DNA of 64,000 nt from a virus. Taxonomy: Duplodnaviria > Heunggongvirae > Uroviricota > Caudoviricetes. Under the pieces are notes generated by a model, which was not told where the DNA came from, did not search any database, and saw only the letters and a list, made by a program, of their open reading frames with translations. The first letter of the stretch is position 1; every line of letters begins with the position of its first letter. Shown here piece after piece: positions 8,625 through 64,000 of the stretch. The position numbers were made by a program, and so were the translations under genes. The stretch lies in the IMG/VR virus record IMGVR_UViG_2681813233_000007; one strand, written 5' to 3'.

Positions 8625-8634
8625 TCGCCTTGTT

Positions 8635-9840: not shown

Positions 9841-9858
9841 GTGTTAGAAAATTAATTT
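9841..9858 (+). promoter_or_regulatory. Operator-like motif GTGTTAGAAAATTAATTT with inverted partial partner at 9861-9873
   Basis: Motif family member upstream of the first icd-ant module. Confidence 0.5.
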
Positions 9859-10200
9859 GCTGTTTCTAAATCGGAATGTATGATCTGCATCATCGTCTGA
9901 AGTCATCCATTGCTGAAATTTTTAGTTGATCTTCCATGTTTTCAGGCTTATATTCATGCCGTCGTAGCAAATTCTGCGACCGGGTTTGACAGCCTGAATA
10001 CTTACGCGGACAACCGCACATTTCCGATATTGCGGTATTTTTGTGTCCGTAAAACCACGTTACGCCCGAATTATGGTGGGGCGTGATGGGGAGGCTTCGG
10101 CCTGCTGGTTTCGTAAGTGCCAGTCTGTCAACCCTGTCACGTCCTGCCACCTGTTTGACAGCGGGTCGCAGGTTGTTTATCAACTTACGAGGCCGTAACT

Positions 10201-18833: not shown

Positions 18834-18869
18834 CAGATAAGGAGCGGCCCCAACCGGGGCCGAATTTGA

Positions 18870-20745: not shown

Positions 20746-20783
20746 TATTGCATCTTCCGATACCGTCATCAAACTAATAAAAT

Positions 20784-20801
20784 ATGTTAGAAAACTAATT
20801 T
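20784..20801 (+). promoter_or_regulatory. Operator-like motif ATGTTAGAAAACTAATTT
   Basis: Identical 18-mer recurs inverted at 48627-48644; immediately upstream of the 20808 gene. Confidence 0.55.
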
Positions 20802-20807
20802 AACAAA

Positions 20808-22031
20808 GTGACGGGAACAGCAATGAGTCAACACACTGATACTTCTAATCTGGAAATTATCTCGACAGCAATTGAAACGCTGCGCACACAAATCGCTCTT
20901 ATACAGAAACGGAATCCGGGTGATGACCTGTCAAAGCGACTGCACGAGAGTGTCATTGCCACTACAGATAACCTGGTGGCGGAAATCAACAAGCTGCTTG
21001 ATGATGGGGCAGTTGATTACAATAAGCTGGTGGATCAGTTTGAGGAATACCAACAAGCCGTTAATGATGGCTTGATCCGTTTTTCACAAGTCACAGGCGT
21101 ATCAGCGACAGTTGAAAGCCTAGGTGATGCAGTTAATCAATTTGCCGCGAATATGCGTAATGAGATCGGCAATCTGGAAGCGCGTCTTGAACAGGCAAAT
21201 ACACTGCGTAAATCTGCCGAAGCCGATTTGAACCGTTACAAAAAAGACTATCCGCCAAGCCTGACAAAGCGGCTGGATGTTGCGGAGAAGGATAACCGCA
21301 CGCTGAAAAGAGAGCGCAGGGAACTAAAAGAGCGTTTAACCAAGCTCAATCAGCAATGCATTGATTATCAAGGCGAAGGCGTCACACTGCGTAAAAAGTT
21401 GGCTACAGCGCAGAGCATTATCGAAACATTAAAGCGAGAGTGCTCACAGCTTGGTCACGATCTGAACCGTGCTTGTGGCATGGGACAAAGACCAGAGACA
21501 TTTCCACTCATGTATGATGGAAGGGATGCCATTGCCTACATCCATGAGTATCCGCACGGCCTGGTTGCGGAAACAGGGCAGCGTGGCGAAGCACTGTTGA
21601 CGGCTAATTACCATCAACAAATCAGAACCAATCGCCTGTTAACGATGGATGTGATCCCATCGGTATGGGGAACGCCGCTTTACTATCGCCTGCCGGGCTT
21701 CGAAAAGGACTGGAATACCGACATAGACGAATGTCTCGCAGATAAAATTATGGCGTACCTGGAGACGGATTTTCCGCGCTTATATCGCCGGATTATGGAC
21801 TCTAAGGATGCGCCAATCGATGAATTAAAAATGCGTCCGGAGACGCTGGAGGCAATCAAGCAGACGGAGTTTGATACTGTATTCAGTGTGGCCTGCATTC
21901 CAAGCTGTTTCCATGAAAGCATCCCGTTCATGCAAGGAGATCGTCGTCAGGAAATCATTGACGCTTGCCGGGTATGGGCGAACGAATGGGATAAGAAGAA
22001 TGGGGGTGTAGAAGATCTTTATGGGAAATAA
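20808..22031 (+). CDS. Hypothetical protein, N-terminal coiled coil
   Basis: 407 aa ORF downstream of an operator-like motif; no recognised domain. Confidence 0.45.
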   Translation: MTGTAMSQHTDTSNLEIISTAIETLRTQIALIQKRNPGDDLSKRLHESVIATTDNLVAEINKLLDDGAVDYNKLVDQFEEYQQAVNDGLIRFSQVTGVSATVESLGDAVNQFAANMRNEIGNLEARLEQANTLRKSAEADLNRYKKDYPPSLTKRLDVAEKDNRTLKRERRELKERLTKLNQQCIDYQGEGVTLRKKLATAQSIIETLKRECSQLGHDLNRACGMGQRPETFPLMYDGRDAIAYIHEYPHGLVAETGQRGEALLTANYHQQIRTNRLLTMDVIPSVWGTPLYYRLPGFEKDWNTDIDECLADKIMAYLETDFPRLYRRIMDSKDAPIDELKMRPETLEAIKQTEFDTVFSVACIPSCFHESIPFMQGDRRQEIIDACRVWANEWDKKNGGVEDLYGK

Positions 22032-22032
22032 T

Positions 22033-22050
22033 GTGTTAGAAATCTAAAAT
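22033..22050 (+). promoter_or_regulatory. Operator-like motif GTGTTAGAAATCTAAAAT
   Basis: Motif family member at the start of the non-coding/tRNA region. Confidence 0.45.
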
Positions 22051-22188
22051 CACAATTCGAATGTATTGATTGTGGAGATAACTTAACATAGAATTTTCCT
22101 TGCTGGTGGGCAGTACCCACGTTTCGCTTGCTGGGCTTGATAGTCACTTATTGGTTATTGTTTGCCCACCAGCATTTAACAAATTAAA

Positions 22189-22206
22189 GTGTTAGAAAAG
22201 TATGGT
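22189..22206 (+). promoter_or_regulatory. Operator-like motif GTGTTAGAAAAGTATGGT
   Basis: Motif family member 155 bp after the previous one. Confidence 0.4.
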
Positions 22207-22685
22207 AATGCAAGAGCACGCTTTGGCACCGTGCAGGCCAAAGTTCAGCAGGTTTAGTGCGGAAAGTGGTTTCAGAGAGAGCACTTTGCGGAGTAAACGA
22301 CAATACATGTTGAGCCACGGAAGGTCTTTTTAAGGTGTTCATTGATGATGGTCCGGCAGAGAGTAACGGTACATGCTGCATCTAATCATCAATGCACATC
22401 TTCAACATTAAGGAGGCATAGGGATTTTTGTGGCGGTTACCTTTTGCCCTGAGTCTCCTTAATGTTGCGGTAATGCACCTATGCGGATGTGGCCTTGCAT
22501 TGTGTCTTGAAAGAATGGGGTAAGGCCGGGGATATCCCCAGGGGGAGGCACCCCCGCTGCAACGAACAGCCACAGACGGCAGTCGAGTGATGGAAACGTG
22601 TAAAGACTTTAAACCTCGTTACGGCTGGCGTGGCAAACGCGACAACCGAGACAGAGCGGTGACGGGCGGAGAGAGTGCCGCATCA

Positions 22686-23265: not shown

Positions 23266-23342
23266 GATGGTGTAGCTCAGTAGGATAGAGCAGCAGCCTT
23301 CTAAGCTGTCGGTCGGTGGTTCGAATCCATCCACCATCGCCA
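23266..23342 (+). tRNA. tRNA-Arg (anticodon UCU)
   Basis: Cloverleaf by hand: acceptor GATGGTG/CACCATC, D-arm GCTC/GAGC, anticodon loop CTTCTAA, T-loop TTCGAAT, encoded CCA. Confidence 0.75.
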
Positions 23343-23344
23343 AT

Positions 23345-23417
23345 GCCGGTTTAGCTCAGTTGGTAGAGCGCCTGCCTTGTAAGCAGGATGTCAGCGGTTC
23401 GAGTCCGTTAACCGGCA
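23345..23417 (+). tRNA. tRNA-Thr (anticodon UGU)
   Basis: Acceptor GCCGGTT/AACCGGC, D-loop AGTTGGTA, anticodon loop CTTGTAA, T-loop TTCGAGT. Confidence 0.8.
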
Positions 23418-24582: not shown

Positions 24583-24658
24583 GGCCCTTTAGCTCAGTGG
24601 TTAGAGCAGGCGACTCATAATCGCACGGTCACCGGTTCAAATCCGGTAGGGGCCACCA
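24583..24658 (+). tRNA. tRNA-Ile2 type (anticodon CAU, lysidine-type AUA reader) or tRNA-Met
   Basis: Near-identical to the E. coli ileX-type sequence as I recall it; anticodon loop CTCATAA, encoded CCA. Confidence 0.8.
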
Positions 24659-25112: not shown

Positions 25113-25688
25113 ATGTTAATGGCGAACGATAACGCATATGCAGAAGAAGATCTCATTTTGAGTGACTTCATAGGGAAGCGGGAACGCTGGACCCAAAAGC
25201 GAGAGGAACTTTACGCCTCATTAGTTCGCAAAGGCGTCAATATCGAAACCGCACAGAGCGGCGATATGACAGTGGTAAGCGTTGGATTGCACGGTGTAAG
25301 CGTGTCAGCAATCAATCATGAGCCATACGTTGCGTTATCCGAGTCAATGGTAAGGTTAGTTAAGTTCCTGAAGTACACAGAAGCGAATAATGTAATCATT
25401 GGCAAAAAGAATATCCCTTTTTCCTCGGCTTTTTACTGGATGATGAAAGGGCTTGATGCCCGGCGGACATCATGGCCTAAAGGGAGCTATATATCGATGT
25501 TCCGTGGCAGCATTGGCAGCAAAGAAAAGCTCTTCGAATTCTTGCCGGAAGAGGCATTCGATATTGTGGAAGGGTGCGATGTGATGGTGATGCCTCGCCT
25601 GGTAATGATGAATGGGGATTTACAGGCGCAGACAGACTGGTTTGCAACTGGTGTGGATATTATCGCGACTGACTGGGAGGCTTTCTGA
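25113..25688 (+). CDS. Hypothetical protein with C-terminal DUF2829-like segment
   Basis: 191 aa; C-terminus ...FYWMMKGLDARRTSWPKG...DWFATGVDIIATDWEAF resembles the DUF2829 pattern seen in the 33335 ORF. Confidence 0.4.
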   Translation: MLMANDNAYAEEDLILSDFIGKRERWTQKREELYASLVRKGVNIETAQSGDMTVVSVGLHGVSVSAINHEPYVALSESMVRLVKFLKYTEANNVIIGKKNIPFSSAFYWMMKGLDARRTSWPKGSYISMFRGSIGSKEKLFEFLPEEAFDIVEGCDVMVMPRLVMMNGDLQAQTDWFATGVDIIATDWEAF

Positions 25689-26080
25689 TGTACGGGACTA
25701 CCAAATTAAGCACTCAACAGGCCACCAATATGGAGTGGTCTATCGCTAACTGTAAGATCGTGTCATGCAATGCCACGCGTACTGATGTGGGCCATAAAAG
25801 CACTATAACAGGCTATCTAGTAATGACCACCAGGGGGATGAGGGTTAGATTTCGCTGGAAAGCAGAGCAAGTAACGCCATTCAGAGAGCCATCAATGCCG
25901 CTGCAGGTTGAGCAGGATTATCTATGTTTACCAGAAATAGATGGAGGAATGCTGGTGGAGTCTGATGGTAGTAAGGCTGATTTTGAAGCCAATTTGAAGC
26001 TGGCACAGGCCGTAATCAATAGTTATCGCGGAAAGTGGATCGCAAAAGTGAAACATGTTGTTCGTTTGTCTCGCTGGTAG
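25688..26080 (+). CDS. Hypothetical protein
   Basis: 130 aa; ATG overlaps the upstream stop. Confidence 0.4.
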   Translation: MYGTTKLSTQQATNMEWSIANCKIVSCNATRTDVGHKSTITGYLVMTTRGMRVRFRWKAEQVTPFREPSMPLQVEQDYLCLPEIDGGMLVESDGSKADFEANLKLAQAVINSYRGKWIAKVKHVVRLSRW

Positions 26081-26094
26081 CGTTAGATATTTAA

Positions 26095-26111
26095 TATTAA
26101 TTTTCTAATAT
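26095..26111 (-). promoter_or_regulatory. Variant operator-like motif ATATTAGAAAATTAATA
   Basis: T instead of G at position 3 of the core; upstream of the Lpa-like gene. Confidence 0.3.
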
Positions 26112-26188
26112 AATCATCTTTTTACCAGTCTATACAGTTTTAACATTCTCATTATCATCCCCTCGGTCATTTCCTGCCCGGGGGATTA

Positions 26189-26581
26189 ATGGAACAAATC
26201 AGCAGCGCAGAAATTGCGGATATCATGATCAGGGCTGACTGCTATCTGACAGTCACTGAAATTACCACTCTCGCCAAAGAAAAATACCCTCATCTCCATG
26301 TTTCACGAGTAAGTGTAACTAACATCATTCGTCATTTTGTTCGTTCAAGCAGGGCAATCTGTGAGCTGGATGATCGTGTGTATCCACGAAAATACTGGCT
26401 ACATGGTCTGAACGGATATCAGTTCAAGGTGCGCGGGCGCACGCCTGAATACGGTAGCTTACTGGTTAAAAACTGTAGCAGGAAATCAGTCGAACAGGCG
26501 CGAAAAGAGCAACGAGAGCTGGTGGACATGGCGAATAAGCTGTGGAATGCCGCCGTTAAAAAGCGTGGTGTTGCTTTATGA
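26189..26581 (+). CDS. Putative late-gene activator (Lpa-like by position)
   Basis: 130 aa, immediately upstream of pacA-like as lpa is in P1; stop overlaps the pacA start. Confidence 0.35.
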   Translation: MEQISSAEIADIMIRADCYLTVTEITTLAKEKYPHLHVSRVSVTNIIRHFVRSSRAICELDDRVYPRKYWLHGLNGYQFKVRGRTPEYGSLLVKNCSRKSVEQARKEQRELVDMANKLWNAAVKKRGVAL

Positions 26582-29477: not shown

Positions 29478-30515
29478 TTACCAGAGCTTCGCGGCGTACT
29501 GCGTTTGGGGGAATGTGTATCCGTAACGTTCTTCGATTGCTTTGCCGTATTTTTTACGAGCTTCATTCAGTTTAATGCCGGTCAGGTCGTCTCCAGAGGC
29601 CATCATTACGTCTAACAATTCCAGATCCATTTTATCCAGCCTTGCCATTGCTTCACGTGATGTACGTATCTTACGTTCAATGATATGGCGAATAGCCGGA
29701 TCGGCATCCTCCAGCATCTTAGCGGATTTCTGCTTAAGGCTTTCATTGCGAATATCGATGTTCCTTAAGATGTACGACTTCGCAACGTAGCTTGGCTGGT
29801 GTTTTTCCAGGTCACGAACACGATATAAGTTAAAATCGCCGAGAAGGCTGCAAGGTACCGATTCGACGCCAGAATAAATTGTAATGCTCCGGCGTTCACC
29901 AACATTATTGACAACGGGGATCGTTGTCTTCGGTAGTCTTGCGAAAACCAATGCGCCATGTGCGCCAACTCTAAAGCGAGAAAGGGCATTGCTGCCTTCG
30001 ATGTTTGTTGTCAGCACAACATCTGTATATGCCTCTTTACGCGCCCGGTAGATCTCGCCTTCAGGCTCAGCTTCAAAGAAGCGCTGTTCTTCTTCAAGAG
30101 CACCTACGATTTGAGAAAAAACCCTATTTTTCAGGCTTTTCTTTATGATTTTGTCGTATTTTTTTAGCAATTGTTCACGTGTAAATGTACGTGTTGTTGT
30201 AGCGCTTTGCACAACGACATGCGTGCTTTGATTGGTGTCCTCAATGATGAATGGGATCGGAGAATATACAGACTCAACAATGTTCGACGCTTTGCCGTCG
30301 GCATCGCGGCACATGTCAACGAAGGCTTTCCATTCAGCAAGACATTTTTCAGCTTCTTCTAATATGTTTTGGTCATGCGTTAATGCAACATGGCGGAATT
30401 CCTCGCCAGCATAACTGGTATCATGGAAAACAGAGTTTGCGACCACCAGCTCTTTCCACCGTTCAGCGGTTTGCAGGAACCGTTTGTACTCTTTCTCGAT
30501 CGACTTCTTACTCAT
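29478..30515 (-). CDS. Putative primary repressor (C1-like, by position)
   Basis: 345 aa, convergent with pacB and next to the lox-type site as c1 is in P1; operator-like motif 12 bp upstream of its start. Confidence 0.4.
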   Translation of the reverse strand: MSKKSIEKEYKRFLQTAERWKELVVANSVFHDTSYAGEEFRHVALTHDQNILEEAEKCLAEWKAFVDMCRDADGKASNIVESVYSPIPFIIEDTNQSTHVVVQSATTTRTFTREQLLKKYDKIIKKSLKNRVFSQIVGALEEEQRFFEAEPEGEIYRARKEAYTDVVLTTNIEGSNALSRFRVGAHGALVFARLPKTTIPVVNNVGERRSITIYSGVESVPCSLLGDFNLYRVRDLEKHQPSYVAKSYILRNIDIRNESLKQKSAKMLEDADPAIRHIIERKIRTSREAMARLDKMDLELLDVMMASGDDLTGIKLNEARKKYGKAIEERYGYTFPQTQYAAKLW

Positions 30516-30526
30516 TATTCCTACTC

Positions 30527-30544
30527 GATTTAGTTTTCTAACAT
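30527..30544 (-). promoter_or_regulatory. Operator-like motif ATGTTAGAAAACTAAATC at the c1-like start
   Basis: Motif family member overlapping the presumed promoter/RBS of the c1-like gene, suggesting autoregulation. Confidence 0.5.
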
Positions 30545-30725
30545 AAAATTACTATGACAAATTTATGTCGAATAACAGAGTGAGTAAAGGATCGAACTGT
30601 GATTTTTTGTCATCAATTTTAGAAAACCAACCGTAGAAACCACACTTCGCAAATTAAAGACCATGAAGGCAACGTGTTACTGGTCATCATCAATCTATGA
30701 TGGATTTAAAAAAATCGGCATTTTA

Positions 30726-30909: not shown

Positions 30910-31938
30910 ATGAGTGAATTAATTATCTCTGGCAGTTCCGGTGGTTTTCTGCGCAACATTGGCAAAGAGTACCAGGAAGCCGCAGAAAACTTTATGCGGT
31001 TCATGAATGACCAGGGGGCTTATGCGCCGAATACTCTGCGCGACCTCCGGTTGGTGTTTCATTCCTGGGCGCGCTGGTGTCACGCTCGCCAGCTTGCCTG
31101 GTTTCCGATCTCACCAGAAATGGCCCGCGAGTATTTTCTTCAGCTGCATGATGCCGATCTGGCTTCGACCACCATTGATAAGCACTACGCCATGCTGAAC
31201 ATGCTGCTTTCGCATTGTGGCCTTCCGCCACTTTCGGATGATAAAAGTGTTTCTCTGGCTATGCGGCGCATCCGGCGCGAAGCGGCAACTGAAAAAGGCG
31301 AACGAACAGGCCAGGCTATACCGCTTCGGTGGGACGATCTGAAACTGCTCGACGTCCTGTTGTCCAGGTCAGAACGGCTGGTGGACCTGCGCAACCTGGC
31401 TTTTCTCTTTGTTGCATACAATACGCTGATGCGTATGTCGGAAATATCGCGTATTCGTGTAGGTGATCTGGACCAAACAGGTGACACTGTCACGCTACAT
31501 ATTTCACACACGAAGACAATAACGACCGCCGCCGGGCTTGATAAGGTGCTTTCCCGTCGCACTACCGCTGTGCTGAATGACTGGCTGGATGTTTCCGGGC
31601 TTCGCGAGCATCCTGACGCTGTGCTGTTCCCGCCGATACACCGTAGCAATAAGGCCAGGATCACGATAACGCCCCTTACTGCACCTGCAATGGAGAAAAT
31701 ATTCAGCGACGCCTGGGTGTTGCTGAATAAAAGAGATGCTACGCCAAACAAAGGAAGATACCGGACGTGGACCGGGCATAGTGCACGCGTCGGGGCCGCT
31801 ATTGATATGGCTGAAAAGCAGGTGTCTATGGTGGAGATCATGCAGGAAGGAACCTGGAAGAAACCGGAAACACTTATGCGGTATCTTCGCCGTGGCGGCG
31901 TGTCTGTGGGGGCTAATAGCCGCCTGATGGATTTGTAA
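30910..31938 (+). CDS. dre: Tyrosine site-specific recombinase Dre (Cre family)
   Basis: 342 aa; collinear with Cre (WFP..PE, SVSLAMRRIRRE, IRNLAFL..YNTL.R..EI.RIRV.D, W.GHSARVGAA.DMA). Confidence 0.9.
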   Translation: MSELIISGSSGGFLRNIGKEYQEAAENFMRFMNDQGAYAPNTLRDLRLVFHSWARWCHARQLAWFPISPEMAREYFLQLHDADLASTTIDKHYAMLNMLLSHCGLPPLSDDKSVSLAMRRIRREAATEKGERTGQAIPLRWDDLKLLDVLLSRSERLVDLRNLAFLFVAYNTLMRMSEISRIRVGDLDQTGDTVTLHISHTKTITTAAGLDKVLSRRTTAVLNDWLDVSGLREHPDAVLFPPIHRSNKARITITPLTAPAMEKIFSDAWVLLNKRDATPNKGRYRTWTGHSARVGAAIDMAEKQVSMVEIMQEGTWKKPETLMRYLRRGGVSVGANSRLMDL

Positions 31939-31955
31939 ATTAAATTTCTAACACA
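31938..31955 (-). promoter_or_regulatory. Operator-like motif GTGTTAGAAATTTAATTT
   Basis: Motif family member immediately after the dre stop, upstream of the 32012 operon. Confidence 0.5.
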
Positions 31956-32011
31956 TCTTTTTAGATTAACATCTTTGCTGTAAAGTACCCTCGCCTATTT
32001 AGGAGGGTGCT

Positions 32012-43455: not shown

Positions 43456-43496
43456 AATGCATACCGACTCTGTTTTGTTCCGAGCGGTAAAATAAT

Positions 43497-43514
43497 ATGT
43501 TAGAAAACTAAAAT
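43497..43514 (+). promoter_or_regulatory. Operator-like motif ATGTTAGAAAACTAAAAT with inverted partial partner at 43520-43532
   Basis: Motif family member in the intergenic region upstream of the leftward 43455 operon. Confidence 0.5.
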
Positions 43515-43553
43515 CAATGTTCTAACGCATTTTTGAGTGCGTAAGTGATTTGA

Positions 43554-47809: not shown

Positions 47810-47975
47810 AACATAAGCACTGCGAAAAGCTCAATACCAAGCTCAAGTAGCGCCAACGCCCCGAAAAACAACACATAGAACAGGCCAATCTCATTCACAG
47901 ATGGCTGGTGGATCGCACTTAAAGCTATAAGCATCATGTCCTCCAAACAGTTATCAGGAATGATATTAATGTTTT

Positions 47976-47993
47976 GTGTTAGAAAATCAATTT
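47976..47993 (+). promoter_or_regulatory. Operator-like motif GTGTTAGAAAATCAATTT with inverted partner at about 47995-48010
   Basis: Divergent promoter region between the leftward 47809 operon and ref. Confidence 0.55.
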
Positions 47994-48054
47994 TGAATAT
48001 CTAACCATTTTGATCAATCATAGAAAAATCGCTGAAAAGTAAGAGGCAGCCATC

Positions 48055-48633
48055 ATGCAGAAACAGAGCTACTGGGAGAAACAGAGACAAAAAGCCATGC
48101 AAAGATTGGCTGACCCGGCCTGGCGAGAGGAACAAAGGGCAAAGCGCCTTCAACAAGCTCAACGCCAGCAGCAGCGAGCGAGAGAAAAAGCCGCATCGCC
48201 TGAATATCGGCAAAAGAGAATTGAAAAAGCAAAGCAATATGACCAGCGGAGAAAAGAGAAAGCTGTATCCGCTCCGTCCAAAAAAACACGCACGTCACGC
48301 GGCCTGAAGGGCAGATCACTCACAGCCGATGAACGCCGGATACAGACCGCTATCGGTACTCTCCCCTGCATTGCCTGCCATATTCACGGGCAACATAGCC
48401 CAGTGGTATCCCTGCACCATATCTTCGGGAGAACGGCAGAGAACGCGCATAAATATGTCCTCCCTTTGTGTAAATGGCACCACCAGTACGCAGCGCCAGC
48501 CGAGGTCCGAGAACAATATCCCTGGCTGGTCCCTGTTCATGCTGATGGAAAAATAGGCGGAAAAGCAGATTTCATACGGCACAATGCCGATGAAATGGCG
48601 TTGTATCAGATGGCAATTGAATTGATAAATTAG
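48055..48633 (+). CDS. ref: Ref recombination enhancement function (HNH endonuclease)
   Basis: 192 aa; C-terminal half near-identical to P1 Ref as I recall it (LPCIAC..H...VSLHHI.GRTA...PLC.WHHQ.AAPAEVRE.YPWLVPVHADG). Confidence 0.85.
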   Translation: MQKQSYWEKQRQKAMQRLADPAWREEQRAKRLQQAQRQQQRAREKAASPEYRQKRIEKAKQYDQRRKEKAVSAPSKKTRTSRGLKGRSLTADERRIQTAIGTLPCIACHIHGQHSPVVSLHHIFGRTAENAHKYVLPLCKWHHQYAAPAEVREQYPWLVPVHADGKIGGKADFIRHNADEMALYQMAIELIN

Positions 48634-48644
48634 TTTTCTAACAT
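48627..48644 (-). promoter_or_regulatory. Operator-like motif ATGTTAGAAAACTAATTT
   Basis: Identical 18-mer to 20784-20801; downstream of ref, upstream of the second icd-ant leader. Confidence 0.5.
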
Positions 48645-48965
48645 TTTAAGTTGAATTGGAAATTTCTCCGATGTACATTCACTACCGATTGGCACACCGG
48701 TCAACTTTTTGAGACAAACTGTTTAGTTTTTCGTATTATTGCCGCCGCCATACCTATGGCGGTGCAATATAGGTGGCTGAAAAGCCCCCGTTGACTCACG
48801 GTGTTCCAGCCTTTATTGCGCCGCCACCAGACCGTGGAACAGTCGATGGCGGCTCCGAAAGCAAGGAGTCACTACACTATGAACAACTACAGTCTTTTCC
48901 CATCACTCGTCGTCCACCACTCACGCGATAATCTGCATTCTTTACTCGCGCTGGGGGTGTCAAAA

Positions 48966-49133: not shown

Positions 49134-49237
49134 ATACTGACTGTTGCGCCCTGGCATTATCGTGGGGTATATTTCTACGGCACCTTAGAAAAACGGGTGC
49201 CGGGATTGGAACCCCGGATAATGTCAAAGGCGACACA

Positions 49238-49259
49238 GACGCCGAAAGCGTCTTTTTTT
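49238..49259 (+). terminator. Rho-independent terminator
   Basis: GACGC-cgaaa-GCGTC followed by TTTTTTT. Confidence 0.7.
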
Positions 49260-49444
49260 GTGTCATGCCATCGCACAGCCATACGTAGCGTTTAGCTCAG
49301 AGATCAATGGTAGTGCTGGCTGGGCTGCCGAAAGGCAGGCCGGTTCCCTTTGACGCCGGTAGTTCCAACCCAGTCAGTGCTACCGCCATTGAGATTGGAA
49401 CCTCACGCGGTAGCTCCTTAACTTAGTCAAAGGAGGCTGCCAAT

Positions 49445-57049: not shown

Positions 57050-57853
57050 TTGAGGATGCTTATGGGCCGTTTTGACGAATGGTTTGCTGACGATGCAAAC
57101 CTGGCAAGTAAGGAGTCAGAACATGACAGCACGCAGAGAGAAACGCCAGCGCCGATTGAAGCGAATGCAGGAGGCGCGCCGGAACATGGCAATACCGGTT
57201 CGGATTCATTCAGCATTCTGGAAGAGCAACCCGCCGCCAAAGCTGATAGCCATGATAATTTTGCTGATAGCAACGGTGGCCTTACTCCGGATGCTGGCGA
57301 ATCAGATATAGCCATACTTCCATCTTCCCTGGCTGGCAGAGAACCGACTCCACAGTTAAAAGCACGCTATAACGGGCATAAAGCCTTTAACGACCAAATC
57401 CGCGCAGACTGGATGCTGATTATTGAATCCAGCCCAGACGCGTTTCAGGCTCTCTTATATCGACCAGATGTTGGCACATATGGGGTAGTCAGCGACGAAA
57501 CAGGAGAAGAGTCATTCACTGAACTGGATAACAACCAACGCGAACTGACTTACCAGGAACCTGAAATCGTTTATGTGCTGGATAACCCTGACGGGCGTGA
57601 CTCTTTCCATGCGATTGACGCAGACGGTGAGCAGGATGGCTTAACCGATGATGTTCTGATTCTGCGTATTGCAGCAAATAACGTCCCCGTCGGCTCAATT
57701 CTTGAATGGAATGAAGAGATGGTAAACGGCGTAGCGCGCCGCTGGTGGTACGTGCACCGTATTTTTAGCTACGGCACACAGCATGTTGGTTCGCTTTACT
57801 ACTGCATACCTGCCAGGAATTTTGATACGACTCAAAACGGAGTGATCGAATGA
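57050..57853 (+). CDS. Hypothetical virion-morphogenesis protein
   Basis: 267 aa; first of four translationally coupled ORFs ending in a spike-like protein. Confidence 0.4.
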   Translation: MRMLMGRFDEWFADDANLASKESEHDSTQRETPAPIEANAGGAPEHGNTGSDSFSILEEQPAAKADSHDNFADSNGGLTPDAGESDIAILPSSLAGREPTPQLKARYNGHKAFNDQIRADWMLIIESSPDAFQALLYRPDVGTYGVVSDETGEESFTELDNNQRELTYQEPEIVYVLDNPDGRDSFHAIDADGEQDGLTDDVLILRIAANNVPVGSILEWNEEMVNGVARRWWYVHRIFSYGTQHVGSLYYCIPARNFDTTQNGVIE

Positions 57854-58617
57854 CTTCAAATAAAACCCTCCTGGCGCGAACAGGTGAATGGCAAACCTCA
57901 CGCACAGGAAAATTCCAGACCACGGGCTTTGAAAACGTGGATAACGCGTTTGCGACGCTAATCAGCAACATTTTTTCTGATATCTTACTGGTGGCCCCCG
58001 CGCCGGAAGAAAAACGCTTTGCGTCATTCCTGAATCGTCCACCAGCAGAGCGTGTCTATGTGGCCCGTTTCGACAATGCGATCGAGTTTCTTAAAGCAGT
58101 TCGTCGCGCAAATGCCGGGCAAGGGAGAAAACCTGAAAACCAGAACATTAACCGGGATGCTCTCCCCCTGGTCAATATCTCACGCACTATGGATATCAAT
58201 TATATCAACGATGATCAGCAGATTGACCGCAAAAAAGTAGCCAGTTTTTGCGAACCGGATACCGGAATGCCTTTAGCAGAACTGGAATACACCCAGGCCA
58301 TTCTGACGTATGACGTTACGTTAATGGCAACTGATAAAGCGACCATGAGTCTGATGTGTAATTCGCTGGGCGCACGGCTTCGCCTGATGACAGGTACACA
58401 ATTTGAAGCAACCACTCACCTTGTTCGTGTCCCGGTCCCGCTGATTTGCTCGATACAGGATGCCAAAGAAGTCGGCTTTACGGATGTTTCAGCACCAATT
58501 GGAGAAGAGCGTATTTATGCCACACAAGCGCCGATAAGTGTGATTGCAGACGTGATCACAACATGGGAGTTGGACGCAAAACGTATTATTACCGAAACCT
58601 CGATATCTATGGGGTGA
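57850..58617 (+). CDS. Hypothetical baseplate/tail-assembly protein
   Basis: 255 aa, coupled. Confidence 0.4.
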   Translation: MTSNKTLLARTGEWQTSRTGKFQTTGFENVDNAFATLISNIFSDILLVAPAPEEKRFASFLNRPPAERVYVARFDNAIEFLKAVRRANAGQGRKPENQNINRDALPLVNISRTMDINYINDDQQIDRKKVASFCEPDTGMPLAELEYTQAILTYDVTLMATDKATMSLMCNSLGARLRLMTGTQFEATTHLVRVPVPLICSIQDAKEVGFTDVSAPIGEERIYATQAPISVIADVITTWELDAKRIITETSISMG

Positions 58618-58620
58618 TAA

Positions 58621-59601
58621 GTGGCCCAGGAGTTACAACAATATTTTCTACAGTCAGTGCTCATTAACGATAACAAAGTGCCACGAGACTGGATTTTTAC
58701 CGCAGTATATGTAGAAAAAACCAGCCTCAAAGCCCCTTTGCTAAAACTGGAAATTCATGACGCTACCGGCACCGTAATTGATGACTGGAAAGCCAAATAC
58801 GGTGCATCGCTGGTGGCTGAAATGGGCGATCCAAACGGTAATGCAGGCACTTTTAAAACAGATTTCTTTGTTACGTCTGCAATGCTGGCTGGTGATGTTG
58901 TTACCGTTATTGCTGTCAGTGAAGACGTGCGCAGGTTTAAGATCCCCTCCCCGCGCACAAATTTACATACCAACAAAACACCAGACGCTATATTCAAGGC
59001 ATATTCCGGCAAACTTAAAATTACCAGCAGCGTGCTAAAACGCGCAGTTACATATCATCTGAATGCCGGTGACAAACCGTCAAAAATGCTTTCTGAGATA
59101 GCGCGAGACAAAGGTGCATTGTGTTGGGTATGTCGGGGGGAATTTAACTTTTACACCCTGGCTGATCTGATGAAGCAAACGCCATCATTTACCTACGAGG
59201 GGAATAACCCTAAAGCAGAATACACTTTGTCAAAAATGCGCCTACTCCAACAGGAACATGCGACAACAGCAAAGAATCAATATCGTTTTGTTGGGTATTC
59301 CATGACCGATGGCTACGTCGAATATGGCGATAGCTCACTCCCAGTGCGTTATATATCCGACTCTGATATGGAAACTCTTCGCAATATGCAGCTGTCTCTC
59401 GTCCCCAAAATGGATATAGAAGTCGCAGGCAATCCTGATATAAAACCGGGGATGGTGATAGAGATTATCGTATACCGCTATGACCAGGAAAACCGCATTG
59501 ATGAATCAATGCCCCGTAAGCTGATAGTAAAAAATGTTGCGCACTTTGAAGACCGCGTAGGCTACACAACACGAATGATATTGGGAGTGCCGAACAAATG
59601 A
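58621..59601 (+). CDS. Hypothetical baseplate/tail-assembly protein
   Basis: 326 aa, coupled. Confidence 0.4.
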   Translation: MAQELQQYFLQSVLINDNKVPRDWIFTAVYVEKTSLKAPLLKLEIHDATGTVIDDWKAKYGASLVAEMGDPNGNAGTFKTDFFVTSAMLAGDVVTVIAVSEDVRRFKIPSPRTNLHTNKTPDAIFKAYSGKLKITSSVLKRAVTYHLNAGDKPSKMLSEIARDKGALCWVCRGEFNFYTLADLMKQTPSFTYEGNNPKAEYTLSKMRLLQQEHATTAKNQYRFVGYSMTDGYVEYGDSSLPVRYISDSDMETLRNMQLSLVPKMDIEVAGNPDIKPGMVIEIIVYRYDQENRIDESMPRKLIVKNVAHFEDRVGYTTRMILGVPNK

Positions 59602-60251
59602 AGCGTAGAGCGCAAATTGTTGGAACTGTGCACCCGGCAGGGCTTATGCGTGCTCAAGTCCGTGTTTTACCTGACTGGAATGGCGTTCCTGATGACGATC
59701 TACCCTGGGCGGAATACCTGTTACCCATCGGAAACGCTTTTGTACCCACAGTCAAAGGTGACCTGGTTTGGGTAGAGTTTCCTTATTTAGATGTTAACGG
59801 TCGAATAGACACCAGACGCCCAATGATAGTTGGTGCCGCTCAGGATGCACCGGGAGGAATTCCAAACGTTGCACCAGAAGCATCTGGCAAAGGCAACGGC
59901 TGGACGCCGCCGGAAGTAGATGGAGCACCTCCCCGCCCCCAAATCTCAGCAACGAAAGACTTCGTTATTCACCGCAACAATATTCTTGAAGTACGAACTG
60001 CTGGTGGCGGCTATGAAATTGCCAATACGGCAGCAGGCTCAAGGATTGGCATGAATGAGTCCGGGCAGATATATATCATTGGTCCGGCTGATGTAATCGT
60101 GAATGCAGGAGGGAGTGTTAACGTCAAATCAGCCAACAACATCAATGTTAAAGGGGAAAATATTGCTGTCACCGCTAACGGAGACATAGCTTTCAAGGCA
60201 GGAGGAACCTTTCAGGCCACTGCTAGCAACTTCGATTTCAAGAAAGGATAG
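59598..60251 (+). CDS. Baseplate central spike (gpV/gp45-like)
   Basis: N-terminal OB-fold-like segment (VGTV...VRV...W..P.VGD.VWV) and C-terminal beta-helical repeats (GGSVNVKSANNINVKGENIAVTANG). Confidence 0.55.
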   Translation: MKRRAQIVGTVHPAGLMRAQVRVLPDWNGVPDDDLPWAEYLLPIGNAFVPTVKGDLVWVEFPYLDVNGRIDTRRPMIVGAAQDAPGGIPNVAPEASGKGNGWTPPEVDGAPPRPQISATKDFVIHRNNILEVRTAGGGYEIANTAAGSRIGMNESGQIYIIGPADVIVNAGGSVNVKSANNINVKGENIAVTANGDIAFKAGGTFQATASNFDFKKG

Positions 60252-60266
60252 AAAATGCACCAGTTT

Positions 60267-60298
60267 GTGTTAGATAATTAATATGTATTTTCTAACAC
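60267..60298. promoter_or_regulatory. Overlapping inverted pair of operator-like motifs
   Basis: GTGTTAGATAATTAATAT on plus and GTGTTAGAAAATACATAT on minus, just upstream of rdgC-dmt. Confidence 0.55.
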
Positions 60299-60310
60299 AA
60301 ATGGTGAGAC

Positions 60311-61216
60311 ATGAGATCAGTCGCTTTCAAAAATATCTTCATCTATCGTCTTTCACGCGAAGTTAGCTGGGATACTGCAGAAGTAAATGCAGCCCTTAGC
60401 AAGTTTGTGTTTACCCCATGCGGTTCTCAGGATATGGCTAAAGCTGGTTGGACCCCCGTTCTTGGCGACAACCTCACCCATGAATACCAGGGTTTTCTTC
60501 TGATACAGCATAAACGAGAGGAAAAAATCCTACCCTCTCAAGTGCTCAAAGAAGAGTTACAGAAAAAAATCCTGACACTTGAAGAAGAGCAAGACAGAAA
60601 GCTGAAGAAGACTGAAAAAGATTCGCTGAAGGATGAAGTGCTTCACTCTCTTCTTCCTCGTGCTTTCACGAGAAAATCAGTCGCTAAAATCCTGATAGAC
60701 CGAAGCAATCATCTGGTTTTTGTCGAGGCCAGCAGTGCTAAAAAAGCAGAGGATCAGCTGGCTTTGTTACGGAAATCGCTTGGCAGCTTGCCCGTTGTCC
60801 CCTTCTCTCCGAAAGACCCATTAGAACTGACCATCACTGGCTGGATTAAAAATGGCTTCCCGAACGGTTTCCGTGCCGGTGAGGAAGCGACCTTAAAAGC
60901 ATTGCTTGATGATGGCGGCGCGGTCCGCTGCAAAAAAGTGGACCTGCTATCCGACGAGATCATGAGTCATATAGAAGCTGGTAAGGTTGCAACCACAGTT
61001 GCGGTTAACTGGCAAGACCGTGCATTTTTCAGACTGAATGACGATATGAGTATCAAGGCTTTGTCGTTCAGCGACGAATTGTACGACCAGAACGACGATA
61101 TTGATCGAGAGGATGTTGCGCAACGATTTGACGCTGACTTTATCCTATTTACTGCTGAATTATCAGCGATGTTCACCTCGCTAGTGGAGGCCGTTGGTGG
61201 TGAAGCAGAACGTTAA
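60311..61216 (+). CDS. rdgC: RdgC-like recombination-associated protein
   Basis: 301 aa, collinear with E. coli RdgC as I recall it (FKN...[59 protein letters not shown]). Confidence 0.8.
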
Positions 61217-63488
61217 CCTTCGATATGGTTCAGTTTGCAGTGGAATTGAAGCCGCGAGCATTGCCTGGGAACCGTTGGGTATGCGTCCGGCGTGGTTTGC
61301 TGAAATTGAGCCTTTTCCATCTGCCGTTCTTGCGCACCGCTGGCCTCATGTCGCCAACCTTGGCGATATGACAAAACTTGCCAAAAAAGTCCTGGCTGGG
61401 GAAATCGAATCCCCTGATGTGCTCGTCGGGGGAACACCTTGTCAGGCATTCAGTATCGCGGGATTACGTGGTGGGCTTGATGATGAGCGTGGCGCGCTAA
61501 CTTTAAAGTATGTGGAGCTTGCAAATGCAATTGACGACAAACGGGCTGAGTCATTTCTCAAACCAGCCGTTATCGTCTGGGAAAATGTCCCAGGAGTCTT
61601 GTCATCGGCAGATAACGCCTTCGGATGTTTCCTTGCCGGATTGGCTGGAGAAGATGCGCCATTTGAACCAGGTGATCGACCTGAATCAGGAAAAAGTAAC
61701 ACGTTCTGGCGGTGGGATGGCAAAACCGGTTGCCATGCTCCAAAGTGGCCGCAGTGTGGTTGTATTTATGGACCGCAGCGAAAAGTGGCCTGGAGAATCC
61801 TTGATGCCCAATACTTCGGAGTGGCACAACGACGCCGACGCGTGTTTGTTGTCGCAAGTGCTCGAACAGACCTCGATCCCGCAACGGTACTTTTTGAGTT
61901 CGAAGGCGTGCGCCGGAATATTGCGCCGAGCCGAAAAAAGAAGGAAATCGCTTCCGCCATTATTGCAAATGGCGCTGCAATCAGTGGCGAAAGCCTAAAT
62001 CCATGCCTACACGCTGACATGCCACCCGGTATGAAATCGACGAAAGCCGTAAACGCTTTCAGGATGGCAGCATTTGGGGAATATATTGACGATGAAACCG
62101 CATCGACAGTAAAGGCAAGAGATTTTAAAGATGCCACTGACCTTGCCGTTTTTAGCAGCACAGGAGCAGGTTTTTGGTCAGAAGGGCATGGTACATTGCG
62201 GGCACGTGAGCAAGAAAGCCATGAGCATCTTGTTACATTGGCTTTTCCTGAGCGTATGAGCGGTACACAACATGCTGCAACTAAGAATACTTCACCATCT
62301 CTAATGGCTAAAAATCCAACAGCTGTTTGCTATGAAGTAAGAAACGCAGAAGTAGCTGTCCGCCGTCTTACCCCTGTCGAATGTGAAAGGCTGCAAGGTT
62401 TTCCTGAGGGGCATACGTTGATCCCGACGGAAAAGCGTAAAAAAGTTTCTTCAGATGAACTGGCATACCTTCGCAATCACTATCCAGATTTAAGCGAAGA
62501 AGAGGCCGCGATGCTTGCAGCTGACGGACCGCGTTACAAAGCGATCGGCAACAGCATGGCAGTTCCTGTTATGCAATGGATAGGGTGTCGCATTCTTGCG
62601 ACCGTAGCGGATAAACAGCAAAAAACAATAAATACCATTACCTACACAAGAAAACTCCGGACTCCGGATGAATATGAACGCCCAATATTCAAATGGGTAG
62701 GCGGTAAATTCTCAGAGTTGCCTACAGTGCTTGAGCATCTACCACACGGCAAGCGGTTAATAGAACCATTCGTTGGTGGCGGTTCCGTATTTACGAATGC
62801 AGGATTTCGCCACAACCTGCTTAATGATATTAACGGTGACCTGATTAACTTCTATCAGACATTGCAGCGAGAGGGACATTCGCTCGTCACGCTGGCATAT
62901 AGTTTTTTCAAAAATTACAACAACGCTGACGCTTACCTCGAAGTGCGTGAGGCATTTAACAGAGGAAAGTATGACCAACTACATCATGCTGCTGCCTTTT
63001 TGTACCTTAATCGGCACTGTTTTAATGGCGTAACGCGGTACAACCAAAATGGCGAGTTCAACGTAGGGTATGGCAAATACAAAGCGCCCTACTTCCCACA
63101 TGCAGAGATGGAGGCATTTTTGGCTGATGACGTACTCAAAAACACTTCCTTTGTATCAGGTGACTTTGCTAGCGTCATTGAGGCGGCTGGTGAAGACGAT
63201 GTGATTTTTTGTGATCCGCCGTATGAACCGCTTCCGGATACAGAGGGATTTACCAGCTATTCAGGAAATAGCTTCCGTTTCGACGAACAGAAACGGCTTG
63301 TATCACTGTTGGTGGATGCCCACCAGCGCGGCGCTAAGGTAGTGATAACAAATAGTGGTGCTCCAAACATCCGTGAACTATATGAAGGAAACGGGTTTAA
63401 AGTACATCATATGGCAGCCAGACGGTCGGTTTCCTGCAAGGCGTCAACACGTGTAGTTGCTAACGATATAATTGCAATAATGAAGTAA
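61194..63488 (+). CDS. dmt: Bifunctional DNA methyltransferase: N-terminal C5-cytosine MTase fused to C-terminal Dam-like N6-adenine MTase
   Basis: [12 protein letters not shown] (PCQ) and ENVPG in the N-half; KWVGGK and DPPY in the C-half; start overlaps the rdgC stop. Confidence 0.85.
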
Positions 63489-63512
63489 AAAACGCCGCAG
63501 TAGCGGCGTTTA
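63489..63512. terminator. Bidirectional rho-independent terminator
   Basis: AAAA-CGCCGC-agta-GCGGCG-TTT between dmt and the convergent glnS-like gene. Confidence 0.7.
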
Positions 63513-63536
63513 CTTTTTCATGTGGCGAAATACCTA

Positions 63537-64000
63537 TTAACCTAACTTCGCCCAGGTATCACGCAGCCCAACGGTGCGGTTAAATACCGGTTTTTCCGCC
63601 GTAGAATGGCGGCTGTCGAGGCAGAAATAACCTTCACGCTCAAACTGGAATGCTTTACCCGCTACCGCTTCTTTCAGCGACGGTTCAGCAAAGCCCTGTT
63701 TGATCACCAGCGATTCCGGGTTAATCACCGACAGGAAATCATCCGCAGCACCTGGGTTCGGCACGTTGAACAGACGATCGTACAGGCGGATTTCAACCGG
63801 CAGCGCATGTGCCGCGCTCACCCAGTGAATAACGCCTTTCACTTTACGACCATCTGCCGGATCTTTGCTTAAGGTGTCGGCGTCATAAGTACAGAAGATG
63901 GTGGTGATATTGCCTTCGGCATCTTTCTCCACGCGTTCAGCCTTAATGACGTAAGCATTACGCAGACGCACTTCTTTACCCAGCACCAGACGTTTGTACT
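63537..64000 (-). CDS. glnS: Glutaminyl-tRNA synthetase C-terminal (anticodon-binding) region, truncated by the window edge
   Basis: 149 aa called plus open frame to the window end; matches the E. coli GlnRS C-terminus as I recall it (...[13 protein letters not shown]..). Confidence 0.6.

Follow-up and report, generated by a model that had tools for sequence, protein, structure and literature searches.

Introduction

In phage P1 a gene of the RdgC family is followed by a gene for a methylase in which a C5-cytosine and a Dam domain are fused (uhr-hrdC-dmt, AF234172), and the P7 genes upf64.0-hrdC-dam are arranged in the same way. The P1 operon is annotated as C1-controlled, with the operator Odmt (formerly Op68) and the sigma-70 promoter Pdmt preceding uhr-hrdC-dmt. 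Descriptions of P1 Dmt name a GATC methylase on which pac-site methylation and packaging depend, and dmt is required for pac methylation in Dam- hosts (PMC12707154). The P1 record annotates the protein as GATC-specific and its cytosine methylation merely as 'perhaps at C5 cytosine'; no specific cytosine target emerged from a search of the literature. Both hrdC and dmt were non-essential in a CRISPRi screen and are dispensable for plaque formation by P1. The E. coli RdgC protein (PDB 2OWL) binds dsDNA as a ring-shaped dimer and in vitro inhibits functions of RecA, and its biochemistry has been summarised (PMC11077077).

A related arrangement is present in phage D6 (MF356679), where orf65 (rdgC), orf64 and orf63 (dam) lie between a baseplate gene on the 5' side and glnS on the 3' side. 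In D6-like elements, which are reported to lack the Lxc co-repressor, glnS is regarded as a cargo gene (PMC6799933). D6-like phage-plasmids are common in E. coli and Salmonella.

Here, positions 60267-63488 of a 64-kb stretch of phage DNA, referred to as the window, are compared with these systems. The region very probably constitutes, on a D6-like plasmid prophage, the rdgC(hrdC)-dmt operon corresponding to P1 uhr-hrdC-dmt, with proposed control by a C1-type repressor. The gene pair, behind a predicted operator, is the D6-type version of the long-known P1 hrdC-dmt operon; the locus is real and essentially ordinary.

Results and discussion

The operon resides on a D6-like element

The region 60267-63488 is 99.9% identical to E. 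coli plasmid pE2863-2, with which the whole 64-kb window is collinear, and judged by its sequence the window is a D6-like plasmid prophage. The first-pass annotation of this DNA had missed that P1-type phage-plasmids are known to have this operon as hrdC-dmt, and that it is located on a plasmid prophage and not on an integrated one. Matches to the region are 90-97-kb circular plasmids carrying their own glnS, which rules out both an integrated prophage beside the chromosomal glnS and a Mu-like element. A GlnS-like ORF at 63537-63986 had been the origin of an initial impression of an integrated prophage.

On the 5' side the operon is preceded by a baseplate operon (57850-60251) on the same strand. 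Its last stop is at 60251 and rdgC starts at 60311, leaving a gap of 59 nt in which no ORF is found, so that no small uhr-like gene heads the operon. A terminator scan listed nothing between the upstream baseplate gene and rdgC. On the 3' side lies glnS in convergent orientation, and a bidirectional intrinsic terminator (63490-63511; 9-bp stem with 6 GC pairs, T-runs on both strands) is common to glnS and the methylase gene.

An intact rdgC gene overlaps the gene for a fused methylase

The rdgC gene (60311-61216, plus strand) encodes 301 aa and is preceded by a Shine-Dalgarno-like GGTGAG at 60303-60308, as read from the sequence. The identification as an rdgC-like gene proposed earlier is borne out by a full-length match to Pfam RdgC (PF04381, E 4.8e-102, 341.7 bits with a cut-off of 25) and by the NCBIfam RdgC equivalog NF001462 (PRK00321), whose cut-off of 330 is passed with 387.1 bits. 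With profile positions 3-298 of 298 covered and all 301 aa intact, the gene is no frameshifted remnant. The protein is 60% identical to E. coli RdgC over its full length, without truncation. Because of this identity to the crystallised 2OWL protein and the published summary of its properties (PMC11077077), the window RdgC would be expected to dimerise into a ring, to bind duplex DNA without sequence specificity and to inhibit RecA. Unlike E. coli RdgC, it is encoded by a plasmid prophage and putatively repressor-controlled.

For the methylase gene (61200-63488, plus strand) three in-frame starts are available, TTG 61194, GTG 61197 and GTG 61200. The last is the RefSeq start of the identical gene in pE2863-2 and is kept in D6-type relatives, as is the ribosome-binding site GGAGG (61186-61190), which is situated inside the 3' end of rdgC, 9 nt before GTG 61200. 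The rdgC stop codon TAA occupies 61214-61216, and the overlap therefore amounts to 17 nt if GTG 61200 is taken as the start (762 aa) and to 23 nt with TTG 61194 (764 aa). The overlap of about 20 nt and the length of 764 aa given earlier agree with these figures, and the junction is of the type associated with translational coupling.

The fusion of a C5 with a Dam-like methylase, also proposed before, is evident from Pfam: one polypeptide combines an N-terminal DNA_methylase domain (C5, E 2.2e-36) with a C-terminal MethyltransfD12 domain (Dam class, E 3.9e-56), and Pfam, NCBIfam and PHROG matches agree. The family assignments (RdgC, C5 and Dam) are all above curated cut-offs, and neither methylase domain has lost its catalytic motifs. 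The C5 domain (61200-62657, plus strand) reaches 126.4 bits with PF00145 (cut-off 22) and 118.2 bits with TIGR00675 (cut-off 100.65). Its motifs I, IV (GTPCQAFS), VI (ENV), VIII (QRRRR), IX and X all align with M.HhaI, motif I reading SGIEA in place of GxGG.

The Dam domain (62658-63488, plus strand) aligns with residues 5-269 of E. coli Dam and contains the motifs KW.GGK, FVGGGS and DPPY (FCDPPYEP). Of six positions with roles attributed to them in the structural literature on EcoDam, K9, R124 and Y138 are kept, while L122, P134 and R137 are replaced by V, G and K, respectively. The first-pass annotation had called the protein a broad-specificity methyltransferase. This is not supported; judged by profile and structure matches, the Dam domain is an ordinary member of the Dam family (TIGR00571, 248.4 bits with a cut-off of 114.85; PF02086, 191 bits; E. 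coli Dam structure 2g1p, E 4e-59); in the E. coli Dam equivalog it scores 238 bits, below the cut-off of 441. By analogy with P1 Dmt, its target is presumably GATC.

A bivalent C1-type operator is predicted upstream of rdgC

The gap 5' of rdgC contains two overlapping inverted repeats, I1 with 15-nt arms (60264-60278 and 60287-60301, 93% complementary) and I2 with 11-nt arms (60249-60259 and 60284-60294, 91% complementary). The palindrome 60264-60301 consists of two inverted copies of a motif of about 19-22 bp, AATGTGTTAGAAAATTAATTTA. They correspond to the left (TTTGTGTTAGATAATTAATATG, 60264-60285, plus strand) and right half-sites (TTTGTGTTAGAAAATACATATT on the minus strand, 60280-60301) of a predicted bivalent C1-type operator and score 26.2 and 18.5 bits, respectively, with a leave-out matrix built from the other 14 window sites alone, the rdgC half-sites being excluded. 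In composition-preserving shuffles of the whole 64 kb the mean maximum was 13.2 bits, and 0.02 matches per shuffle reached at least 18 bits. The overlapping inverted operator-like motifs reported in the first-pass annotation are thus found again. With raw 9-mers the enrichment was no more than marginal (18 found, 12 expected), and the longer matrix was needed. The palindrome is not an intrinsic terminator, since it lacks a T-run and was not listed by the terminator scan.

Across the window the motif occurs at 16 sites in 12 loci, all of them intergenic even though non-coding DNA makes up 13% of the window. Scores are cleanly separated, the sites having at least 18 bits and the next matches at most 12.3 bits, and three sites were found by the matrix although absent from its seed set. 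Single sites precede a lytic replication (repL-like) gene (8634-8655, minus strand, score 25.9), the first c4 antisense RNA/icd/ant region (9838-9859, plus strand, 32.3), a gene for a 402-aa hypothetical protein (20781-20802, plus strand, 30.4) and, as a weaker site, a VRR-NUC gene (19738-19759, plus strand, 18.0). Two sites are located before the tRNA region (22030-22051 and 22186-22207, plus strand, 27.3 and 19.3). Another site lies between a cre-like gene and the next operon (31936-31957, minus strand, 29.5), and one precedes the second c4/icd-like region (48626-48647, minus strand, 27.1, outside the seed set); the C4 RNA genes themselves are at 10069-10154 and 49303-49390. Bivalent operators are found 5' of an Lpa-like late activator gene (26077-26114, scores 18.5 and 24.0, both outside the seed set; gene 26189-26581, PHROG match E 2.8e-60), 5' of a DUF968 gene in a leftward accessory-gene operon (43494-43531, 27.6 and 22.8) and 5' of ref, where a strong site has a weak inverted partner (47973-48010, 28.8 and 7.9). 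Together with the rdgC palindrome these make four bivalent sites with identical geometry, the core-to-core distance of 34 bp being shared with 26079-26112, 43496-43529 and 47975-48008.

A candidate for the trans-acting factor is encoded at 29478-30515 (minus strand, 345 aa), in the position of P1 c1 between pacB and cre, with an operator site directly 5' that suggests autoregulation (30526-30547, minus strand, 26.8). Its similarity to P1 C1 amounts to 21% identity over 240 aa (pairwise E 2e-8), and the match to NCBIfam phage_rep_C1 (E 8.9e-6, 25 bits) is far below the cut-off of 500. The loci precede counterparts of the P1 C1-controlled genes repL, lpa, c1 and ref and of both c4/icd regions. 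Since a putative, distant C1 homologue is encoded as well, early, repressor-controlled expression appears plausible, and the motif probably marks a 12-locus regulon of the element's own C1-type repressor.

The operator is conserved among relatives. The left half-site core is found in D6, Salmonella and other relatives, and the cores are kept with a variable spacer in relatives whose rdgC is just 71-86% identical. Even contigs whose RdgC is 61% identical have a GTTAGA-type palindrome 5' of rdgC; one relative (L096) has a degenerate left half-site and has lost the left arm. A contig scan with a degenerate palindrome returned just 37 palindromes from unrelated taxa and none in Enterobacterales, presumably chance matches.

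A candidate sigma-70 promoter (60249-60278, plus strand) consists of a poor -35 element, TAGAAA (60249-60254), an 18-nt spacer and the -10 element GATAAT (60273-60278), with 9 of 12 consensus matches in the scan. The candidate -10 lies within the left operator half-site. Every diverged relative retains hexamers of this kind (TAGAAA or TAGCAA with GATAAT, spacer 17-18), which is consistent with the proposed promoter position.

Proposed mechanism and alternative readings

In the lysogenic plasmid state, the C1-type repressor (29478-30515) would sit on the two inverted half-sites, and the occupied operator would cover the -10 and start region of the weak sigma-70 promoter and keep the operon off. 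Loss of the repressor upon induction or infection would then allow transcription together with the C1 regulon (repL, lpa, ref, ant/icd, c1). Ribosomes ending rdgC may re-initiate at GTG 61200 with the aid of the GGAGG inside rdgC, and RdgC and the methylase would therefore be made together. The Dam domain would methylate adenine in GATC, a function required in P1 for pac-site cleavage and packaging, the C5 domain would methylate cytosine and probably shield progeny DNA from restriction, and the RdgC ring would be expected to bind duplex DNA and restrain RecA on replicating phage DNA. The coordinated control of host recombination and SOS put forward in the first-pass annotation goes too far: it relies just on in-vitro properties of E. 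coli RdgC, and hrdC and dmt of P1 proved non-essential upon CRISPRi. As to its proposal of expression early after induction, de-repression can reasonably be assumed from the 12-locus motif and from Odmt/Op68 of P1, but exclusively early expression is not established, given that no terminator follows the baseplate genes. Late read-through could therefore contribute to or even dominate expression.

This bears the possibility that the operon works as a late unit which owes its expression chiefly to transcription running on from the baseplate operon or to an internal late promoter, with the operator playing a minor part, and that its expression is timed to methylate DNA for packaging. The short distance to the baseplate gene on the same strand without a terminator-like site speaks for such an arrangement, as does the late nature of pac cleavage and packaging, the known role of P1 Dam. 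In P7 a late promoter, LPdam2, is predicted inside dam, and its sequence is present at 62443-62461 of the window. However, LPdam2 is only predicted, and neither a start codon nor a ribosome-binding site for a Dam-only product follows it. Moreover, the conservation of a bivalent operator would be pointless if there were no promoter for it to act on, and the P1 operon is under C1 with a sigma-70 promoter. We regard both late transcription and a timing for packaging as possible rather than probable. It is very unlikely that rdgC-dmt, in the manner of glnS, serves lysogenic conversion as a moron that is active in the carrier state to the benefit of the host, for example by altering its methylome or recombination. 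The window RdgC is indeed closer to the chromosomal E. coli protein (60%) than to P1 HrdC (54%) and the operon adjoins glnS, a cargo gene (PMC6799933), but its promoter region is under the same operator motif that marks lytic genes, glnS is convergent and set off by the bidirectional terminator, and the gene pair is conserved in P1-type phages without glnS. The reading that the inverted repeat arose by chance or lacks a function, and that the methylase belongs to a restriction-modification or defence system, is effectively refuted. Short inverted repeats are frequent in AT-rich intergenic DNA, and the 9-mer counts taken alone would fit this; the full 22-nt motif, on the other hand, is far beyond chance, confined to intergenic DNA and conserved across relatives. 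A restriction-modification or defence role is ruled out since no endonuclease gene is nearby, the neighbours being a baseplate gene and glnS.

A further alternative concerns the extended palindrome 60258-60306 (plus strand), a potential RNA hairpin in transcripts entering from upstream. It could act, also or mainly, as RNA, forming a hairpin of about 20 bp in late baseplate read-through transcripts. The predicted fold has -21.3 kcal/mol (z -6.2), and its outer stem CACCA/UGGUG overlaps the rdgC Shine-Dalgarno sequence GGUGAG. The symmetry runs at least 5 nt past the operator core, where the motif holds 0.3-0.4 bits; the flanks of the other window operators are unrelated, and the other bivalent operators are much less perfect palindromes. 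Compensatory changes occur at five stem positions outside the operator core among 16 distinct relatives, and 87% of cells in the outer stem are paired as compared to 37-48% when partners are slid. Base pairs at the outer positions change in concert (CG, AU, UA) across four sequence lineages and none of 500 shuffles reaches the observed covariation score, a control that does not equal a probability, with about four independent lineages and few evolutionary events sampled. The absence of a terminator between the upstream gene and rdgC also fits. On the other hand, the relatives were gathered with a search pattern that itself prescribed the inner 20 positions, and processes at the DNA level can homogenise palindromes without selection on RNA. 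Furthermore, the hairpin lacks a U-tract and matches no Rfam family, its left arm is gone in L096, and in the pEC361_3 lineage the stem leaves the Shine-Dalgarno sequence uncovered. A function as RNA is therefore rather doubtful in our view, and the same applies to the conceivable roles of the hairpin, namely stabilisation of the 3' end of the late message, a processing site (e.g. for RNase III) or masking of the rdgC ribosome-binding site, and to the idea that transcripts begun inside the operator, lacking the left arm, would be translated freely. It appears unlikely that the element has a dual use, serving as a bivalent operator in DNA and, in RNA, as a hairpin by which translation of rdgC-dmt is kept independent of late transcription or which acts as a processing or stabilising site. 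If this were true, the same 44-49 nt would set timing and transcript source for a recombination modulator and a methylase.

Comparison with P1, P7 and D6

The weight of these results for basic biology is small, as the P1 operon type has been described since the 1980s to 2004 and RefSeq already contains annotated sequences identical to the present one; in the D6 and P1/P7 records these genes go under the names hrdC or rdgC and dmt or dam. The D6-type C1 operator consensus and the 12-locus map, in turn, provide a ready early-gene map for D6-like phage-plasmids, while the linkage of rdgC with the methylase and the covarying hairpin offer testable leads on co-expression of a RecA modulator with DNA methylation.

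Control regions of the P1 and the window operon are similar in design and differ in detail. C1 operators of P1 are dispersed, asymmetric, 17-bp, mono- or bivalent elements before early and lytic genes and c1, and the window sites are distributed likewise; the bivalent operators Obanab and Oc1ab of P1 are mirrored by the overlapping inverted pairs. The sequences, however, are related at about 10 of 17 positions only (AATGTGTTAGAAAATTAATTTA in the window, ATTGCTCTAATAAATAT in P1), and the putative repressors differ in length (345 versus 283 aa) in addition to their low identity. The operator of the window operon is bivalent and overlaps the predicted -10/+1 region, that of the P1 operon the -35 region. 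Unlike its P1 counterpart, the window operon lacks uhr, is situated directly 3' of baseplate genes and adjoins glnS. The start of the P1 methylase gene overlaps the end of hrdC by 4 nt (GTGA) compared to 17 nt in the window.

Backbone and neighbours are those of D6, whose upstream operator palindrome has cores identical to those of the window, and nucleotide identity to D6 is 86% for rdgC and 97% for dam. Yet in D6 rdgC is followed by two separate genes. One codes for a protein of 226 aa annotated as 'putative DNA-cytosine methylase', whose sequence shows no relationship to the P1-type C5 domain, and the other for a Dam protein of 301 aa. In the window a P1/P7-type C5 domain, continuous in frame with the D6-type Dam, takes the place of the 226-aa cassette in the middle. 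Over 755 aa the window methylase shares 85% identity with P1 Dmt, with hardly any difference in the C5 part, and positions 61073-61934 share 89% nucleotide identity with P7, whereas the Dam domain is clearly further from that of P1 than the C5 part is. The enzyme is chimeric, its C5 part being of P1 type and its Dam part of D6 type. The fused form is a minority: at least 80% of the query is held by 11 of 5426 complete E. coli genomes, and the fusion is carried by two of 28 IMG/VR relatives. All 28, with RdgC identities of at least 61%, have a Dam-coding region 0.7-2.7 kb downstream, and the synteny rdgC-[variable cassette]-dam is conserved in this phage-plasmid group. The methylase illustrates clearly how P1-like and D6-like phage-plasmids exchange modules at a hot-spot between rdgC and dam, where C5 cassette and target-recognition region vary, consistent with an arms race against restriction systems.

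Gene pair and source element

The operon consists of an rdgC gene (60311-61216, plus strand, 301 aa) and a gene for a fused methylase (61194-63488, plus strand, 764 aa). The RdgC family spans the entire 301-aa protein (Pfam, E 4.8e-102). The rdgC reading frame is intact and not a frameshifted remnant, which the first-pass annotation had named as a refuting outcome; its product matches E. coli RdgC of known crystal structure (2OWL) over the full length (60% identity, E 1.8e-110). The 764-aa protein carries an N-terminal C5-cytosine methylase domain and a C-terminal D12/Dam-class adenine methylase domain (Pfam), and all three families, RdgC, C5 and Dam, exceed curated cut-offs (NCBIfam). Candidate methylase starts lie in frame at TTG 61194, GTG 61197 and GTG 61200, the last of which is situated 9 nt downstream of GGAGG (61186-61190), is kept in D6-type relatives and corresponds to the RefSeq start. 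Since rdgC ends at 61216, the overlap amounts to 17 nt from GTG 61200 or 23 nt from the TTG. The description of a gene pair overlapping by some 20 nt was accurate, and this observation is confirmed.

Over the operon, sequence identity to the 92.9-kb E. coli plasmid pE2863-2 is 99.9%, and the entire window is collinear with it. Among named phages the nearest is D6, a plasmid prophage related to P1, with the same neighbours: upstream, a gene for the baseplate, and downstream, glnS carried on the plasmid. In the window, the glnS region (63537-64000, minus strand) runs past the end; this cargo gene has already been reported as a hallmark of D6-like elements, and glnS-bearing members have been described (PMC6799933). 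Of 5426 complete E. coli genomes, 569 match part of the query, nearly always on plasmids, and only 11 contain at least 80% of it. Collinearity with pE2863-2 further places in the window a gene of the Thoeris anti-defence Tad2 family (~25113-25688, plus strand) and a gene for a 2278-aa SNF2-related protein (11999-18835, plus strand). Phd/Doc and HigBA toxin-antitoxin pairs, a dUTPase, a PAPS-reductase-family gene and a Ref nuclease are additionally encoded.

A chimeric methylase in a variable cassette

In nucleotide comparisons the C5 part is of the P1/P7 type, with 61073-61934 being 89% identical to P7 and the homology starting inside the terminal ~140 nt of rdgC. For the Dam part (62658-63560), the match is to the stand-alone dam of D6, Salmonella and other D6-like plasmids, at 97% identity. 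The fused methylase is a chimera of a P1/P7-type C5 part and a D6-type Dam part. In D6 itself, two separate products are encoded after rdgC, first an unrelated 226-aa 'putative cytosine methylase' and then a free-standing Dam. A Dam-coding region lies 0.7-2.7 kb downstream of rdgC in all 28 IMG/VR contigs with an RdgC identity of at least 61%, and the cassette between the two genes is mostly of the D6_64 type, with several C5 variants and the fused P1-type arrangement in two contigs. The rdgC-dam cassette is a recombination hot-spot, and its variation suggests that cytosine-methylation specificity may have been diversified. In five IMG/VR relatives (L079, L086, L096, L098 and L099) the interval holds either C5-methylase variants of differing lengths (47-82% identity) or an unrelated D6_64-type gene. 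No methylase adjoins the RdgC homologues of 54-59% identity on IMG/VR contigs; many of these homologues may belong to the host and lie at prophage boundaries.

Motifs I, IV (GTPCQAFS), VI (ENV), VIII (QRRRR), IX and X of the C5 domain align with M.HhaI, and motifs KW.GGK, FVGGGS and DPPY of the Dam domain align with E. coli Dam; judged from sequence, both domains look catalytically active. The P7 LPdam2 sequence (AAGTTTCTT ... TGAACT; 62443-62461, plus strand), a predicted late promoter in the P7 GenBank record, is unchanged within the C5 coding region, and no obvious start codon or ribosome-binding site for a Dam-only product is apparent downstream of it.

A probable repressor operator, its regulon and a candidate promoter

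The 59-nt gap upstream of rdgC contains two overlapping inverted repeats, I1 (arms 60264-60278 and 60287-60301) and I2 (arms 60249-60259 and 60284-60294). Both I1 arms are instances of a motif repeated across the window, the putative D6-type repressor operator with the weight-matrix consensus AATGTGTTAGAAAATTAATTTA. The matrix finds 16 sites in the window, three of them absent from its seed set, and these are separated by a clean score gap (at least 18 bits, next at most 12.3). Against a matrix built without them, the two rdgC half-sites score 26.2 and 18.5 bits; shuffled controls for this test yielded 0.02 matches of at least 18 bits per window. All 16 sites (12 loci, 8634-60301) are intergenic in a window that is 87% coding. 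The loci precede a repL-like gene, both C4 antisense-RNA/icd regions, an Lpa-like activator, ref, the tRNA region and the gene at 29478-30515 (minus strand), the product of which is a distant homologue of the P1 immunity repressor C1 in syntenic position. The 12-locus layout is that of the P1 C1 regulon. The four bivalent sites have the same core-to-core span of 34 bp and are like the P1 bivalent operators Obanab and Oc1ab. The P1 operator ATTGCTCTAATAAATAT and the window motif agree at ~10 of 17 positions, which would fit a repressor that is related to C1 yet heteroimmune.

Two separate P1-type immI-like modules (9948-10154 and 49180-49390) are each placed between an operator site on the upstream side and an icd-like gene on the downstream side. 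The first comprises a C4 antisense RNA (Rfam; 10069-10154, plus strand) with an a1/b1 target at 9948-10000, and the second a C4 RNA (Rfam; 49303-49390, plus strand) preceded by an isrK-like RNA at 49180-49258. Three tRNA genes (23266-23339, 23345-23417 and 24583-24655, plus strand) follow the operator sites at 22030 and 22186, an arrangement that parallels the tRNA/ban region of P1, which is under C1 control.

In relatives with 71-86% identical rdgC the 8-nt centre varies freely between two half-site cores that stay the same, and contigs with 61% RdgC identity likewise have a GTTAGA-type palindrome upstream of rdgC; in the L096 lineage the left arm is lost. The sole conserved promoter candidate is TAGAAA-18 nt-GATAAT (60249-60278; 9/12 consensus match), retained in all relatives with a spacing of 17-18 nt. 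Its -10 element falls within the left half-site, and transcription is predicted to start between the cores (~60285); a bound repressor would therefore occlude this promoter. The last codons and the stop of the baseplate gene (GGATAGAAAATGCA, 60249-60259) resemble a third, partial operator half-site; they pair with 60284-60294 as the alternative repeat I2 and also contain the candidate -35 hexamer.

The best-supported mechanism is that a C1-type repressor holds the weak candidate promoter off through the bivalent operator, and that induction would lead to de-repression and coupled translation of RdgC and the methylase. Bound to phage DNA, RdgC would hold RecA in check, and GATC methylation by the Dam domain would serve packaging, as it does in P1. 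The C5 domain would act on cytosine, plausibly as a protection from restriction in view of how variable the cassette is. The earlier interpretation holds in part, for a repressor-controlled, co-translated RdgC and bifunctional methylase; nothing supports the broad specificity ascribed to the methyltransferase, and control of the SOS response was an overreach.

A possible RNA hairpin

The rdgC palindrome is far more perfect than the other bivalent operators of the window, with symmetry reaching at least 5 nt beyond the cores, where the motif holds almost no information. In 16 distinct relatives the outer positions change together and complementarity is kept (CCATTT/AAATGG, CCAATT/AATTGG, GCAAAAC/GTTTTGC, TTCAA/TTGGA). 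Paired cells make up 87% compared with 37-48% for slid partners, and none of 500 shuffles reached the observed covariation score, in a sample that represents about four lineages and has an inner stem fixed by the search pattern. The predicted RNA fold (-21.3 kcal/mol, z -6.2) takes part of the rdgC ribosome-binding site into its outer stem. A terminator scan found none between the baseplate gene and rdgC, so late read-through transcripts would hold the whole hairpin; those initiated within the operator would not. This suggests a second, RNA-level role of the palindrome in insulation, processing or stabilisation, which we regard as a lead and not a result.

Relation to P1 hrdC-dmt

The first-pass annotation did not recognise the operon as hrdC-dmt, already known and here carried by a phage-plasmid of the D6-like group. 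Identity to the P1 counterparts is 85% for the methylase (Dmt) and 54% for RdgC (HrdC). In GenBank, P1 dmt is annotated as a bifunctional methylase for GATC adenine 'and perhaps' C5 cytosine, and the uhr-hrdC-dmt operon with a monovalent C1 operator, Odmt (formerly Op68), and a sigma-70 promoter, Pdmt. P1 dmt is cited as required in Dam- hosts for pac-site methylation and packaging (PMC12707154), hrdC and dmt were non-essential in a CRISPRi screen of P1 (PMC10695390), and a recent P1vir transcriptome scored both as early/replication-module transcripts. On account of this annotation, the homology and the P1 literature, the window operon is a member of an operon type that has already been described.

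When dmt of P1 c1.100 mod749::IS5 (AF234172) is aligned to 61200-63485, it reads VWGTPCQ at the catalytic PCQ, where the window methylase has the canonical VGGTPCQ. Such a Gly-to-Trp exchange, close to the cysteine of the active site, might reduce C5 activity in laboratory P1 Dmt, and could be a reason why cytosine methylation is annotated only as 'perhaps'. Compared with the P1 operon, the chimeric D6/P1 methylase, the bivalent operator and the lack of uhr in the window are minor variations.
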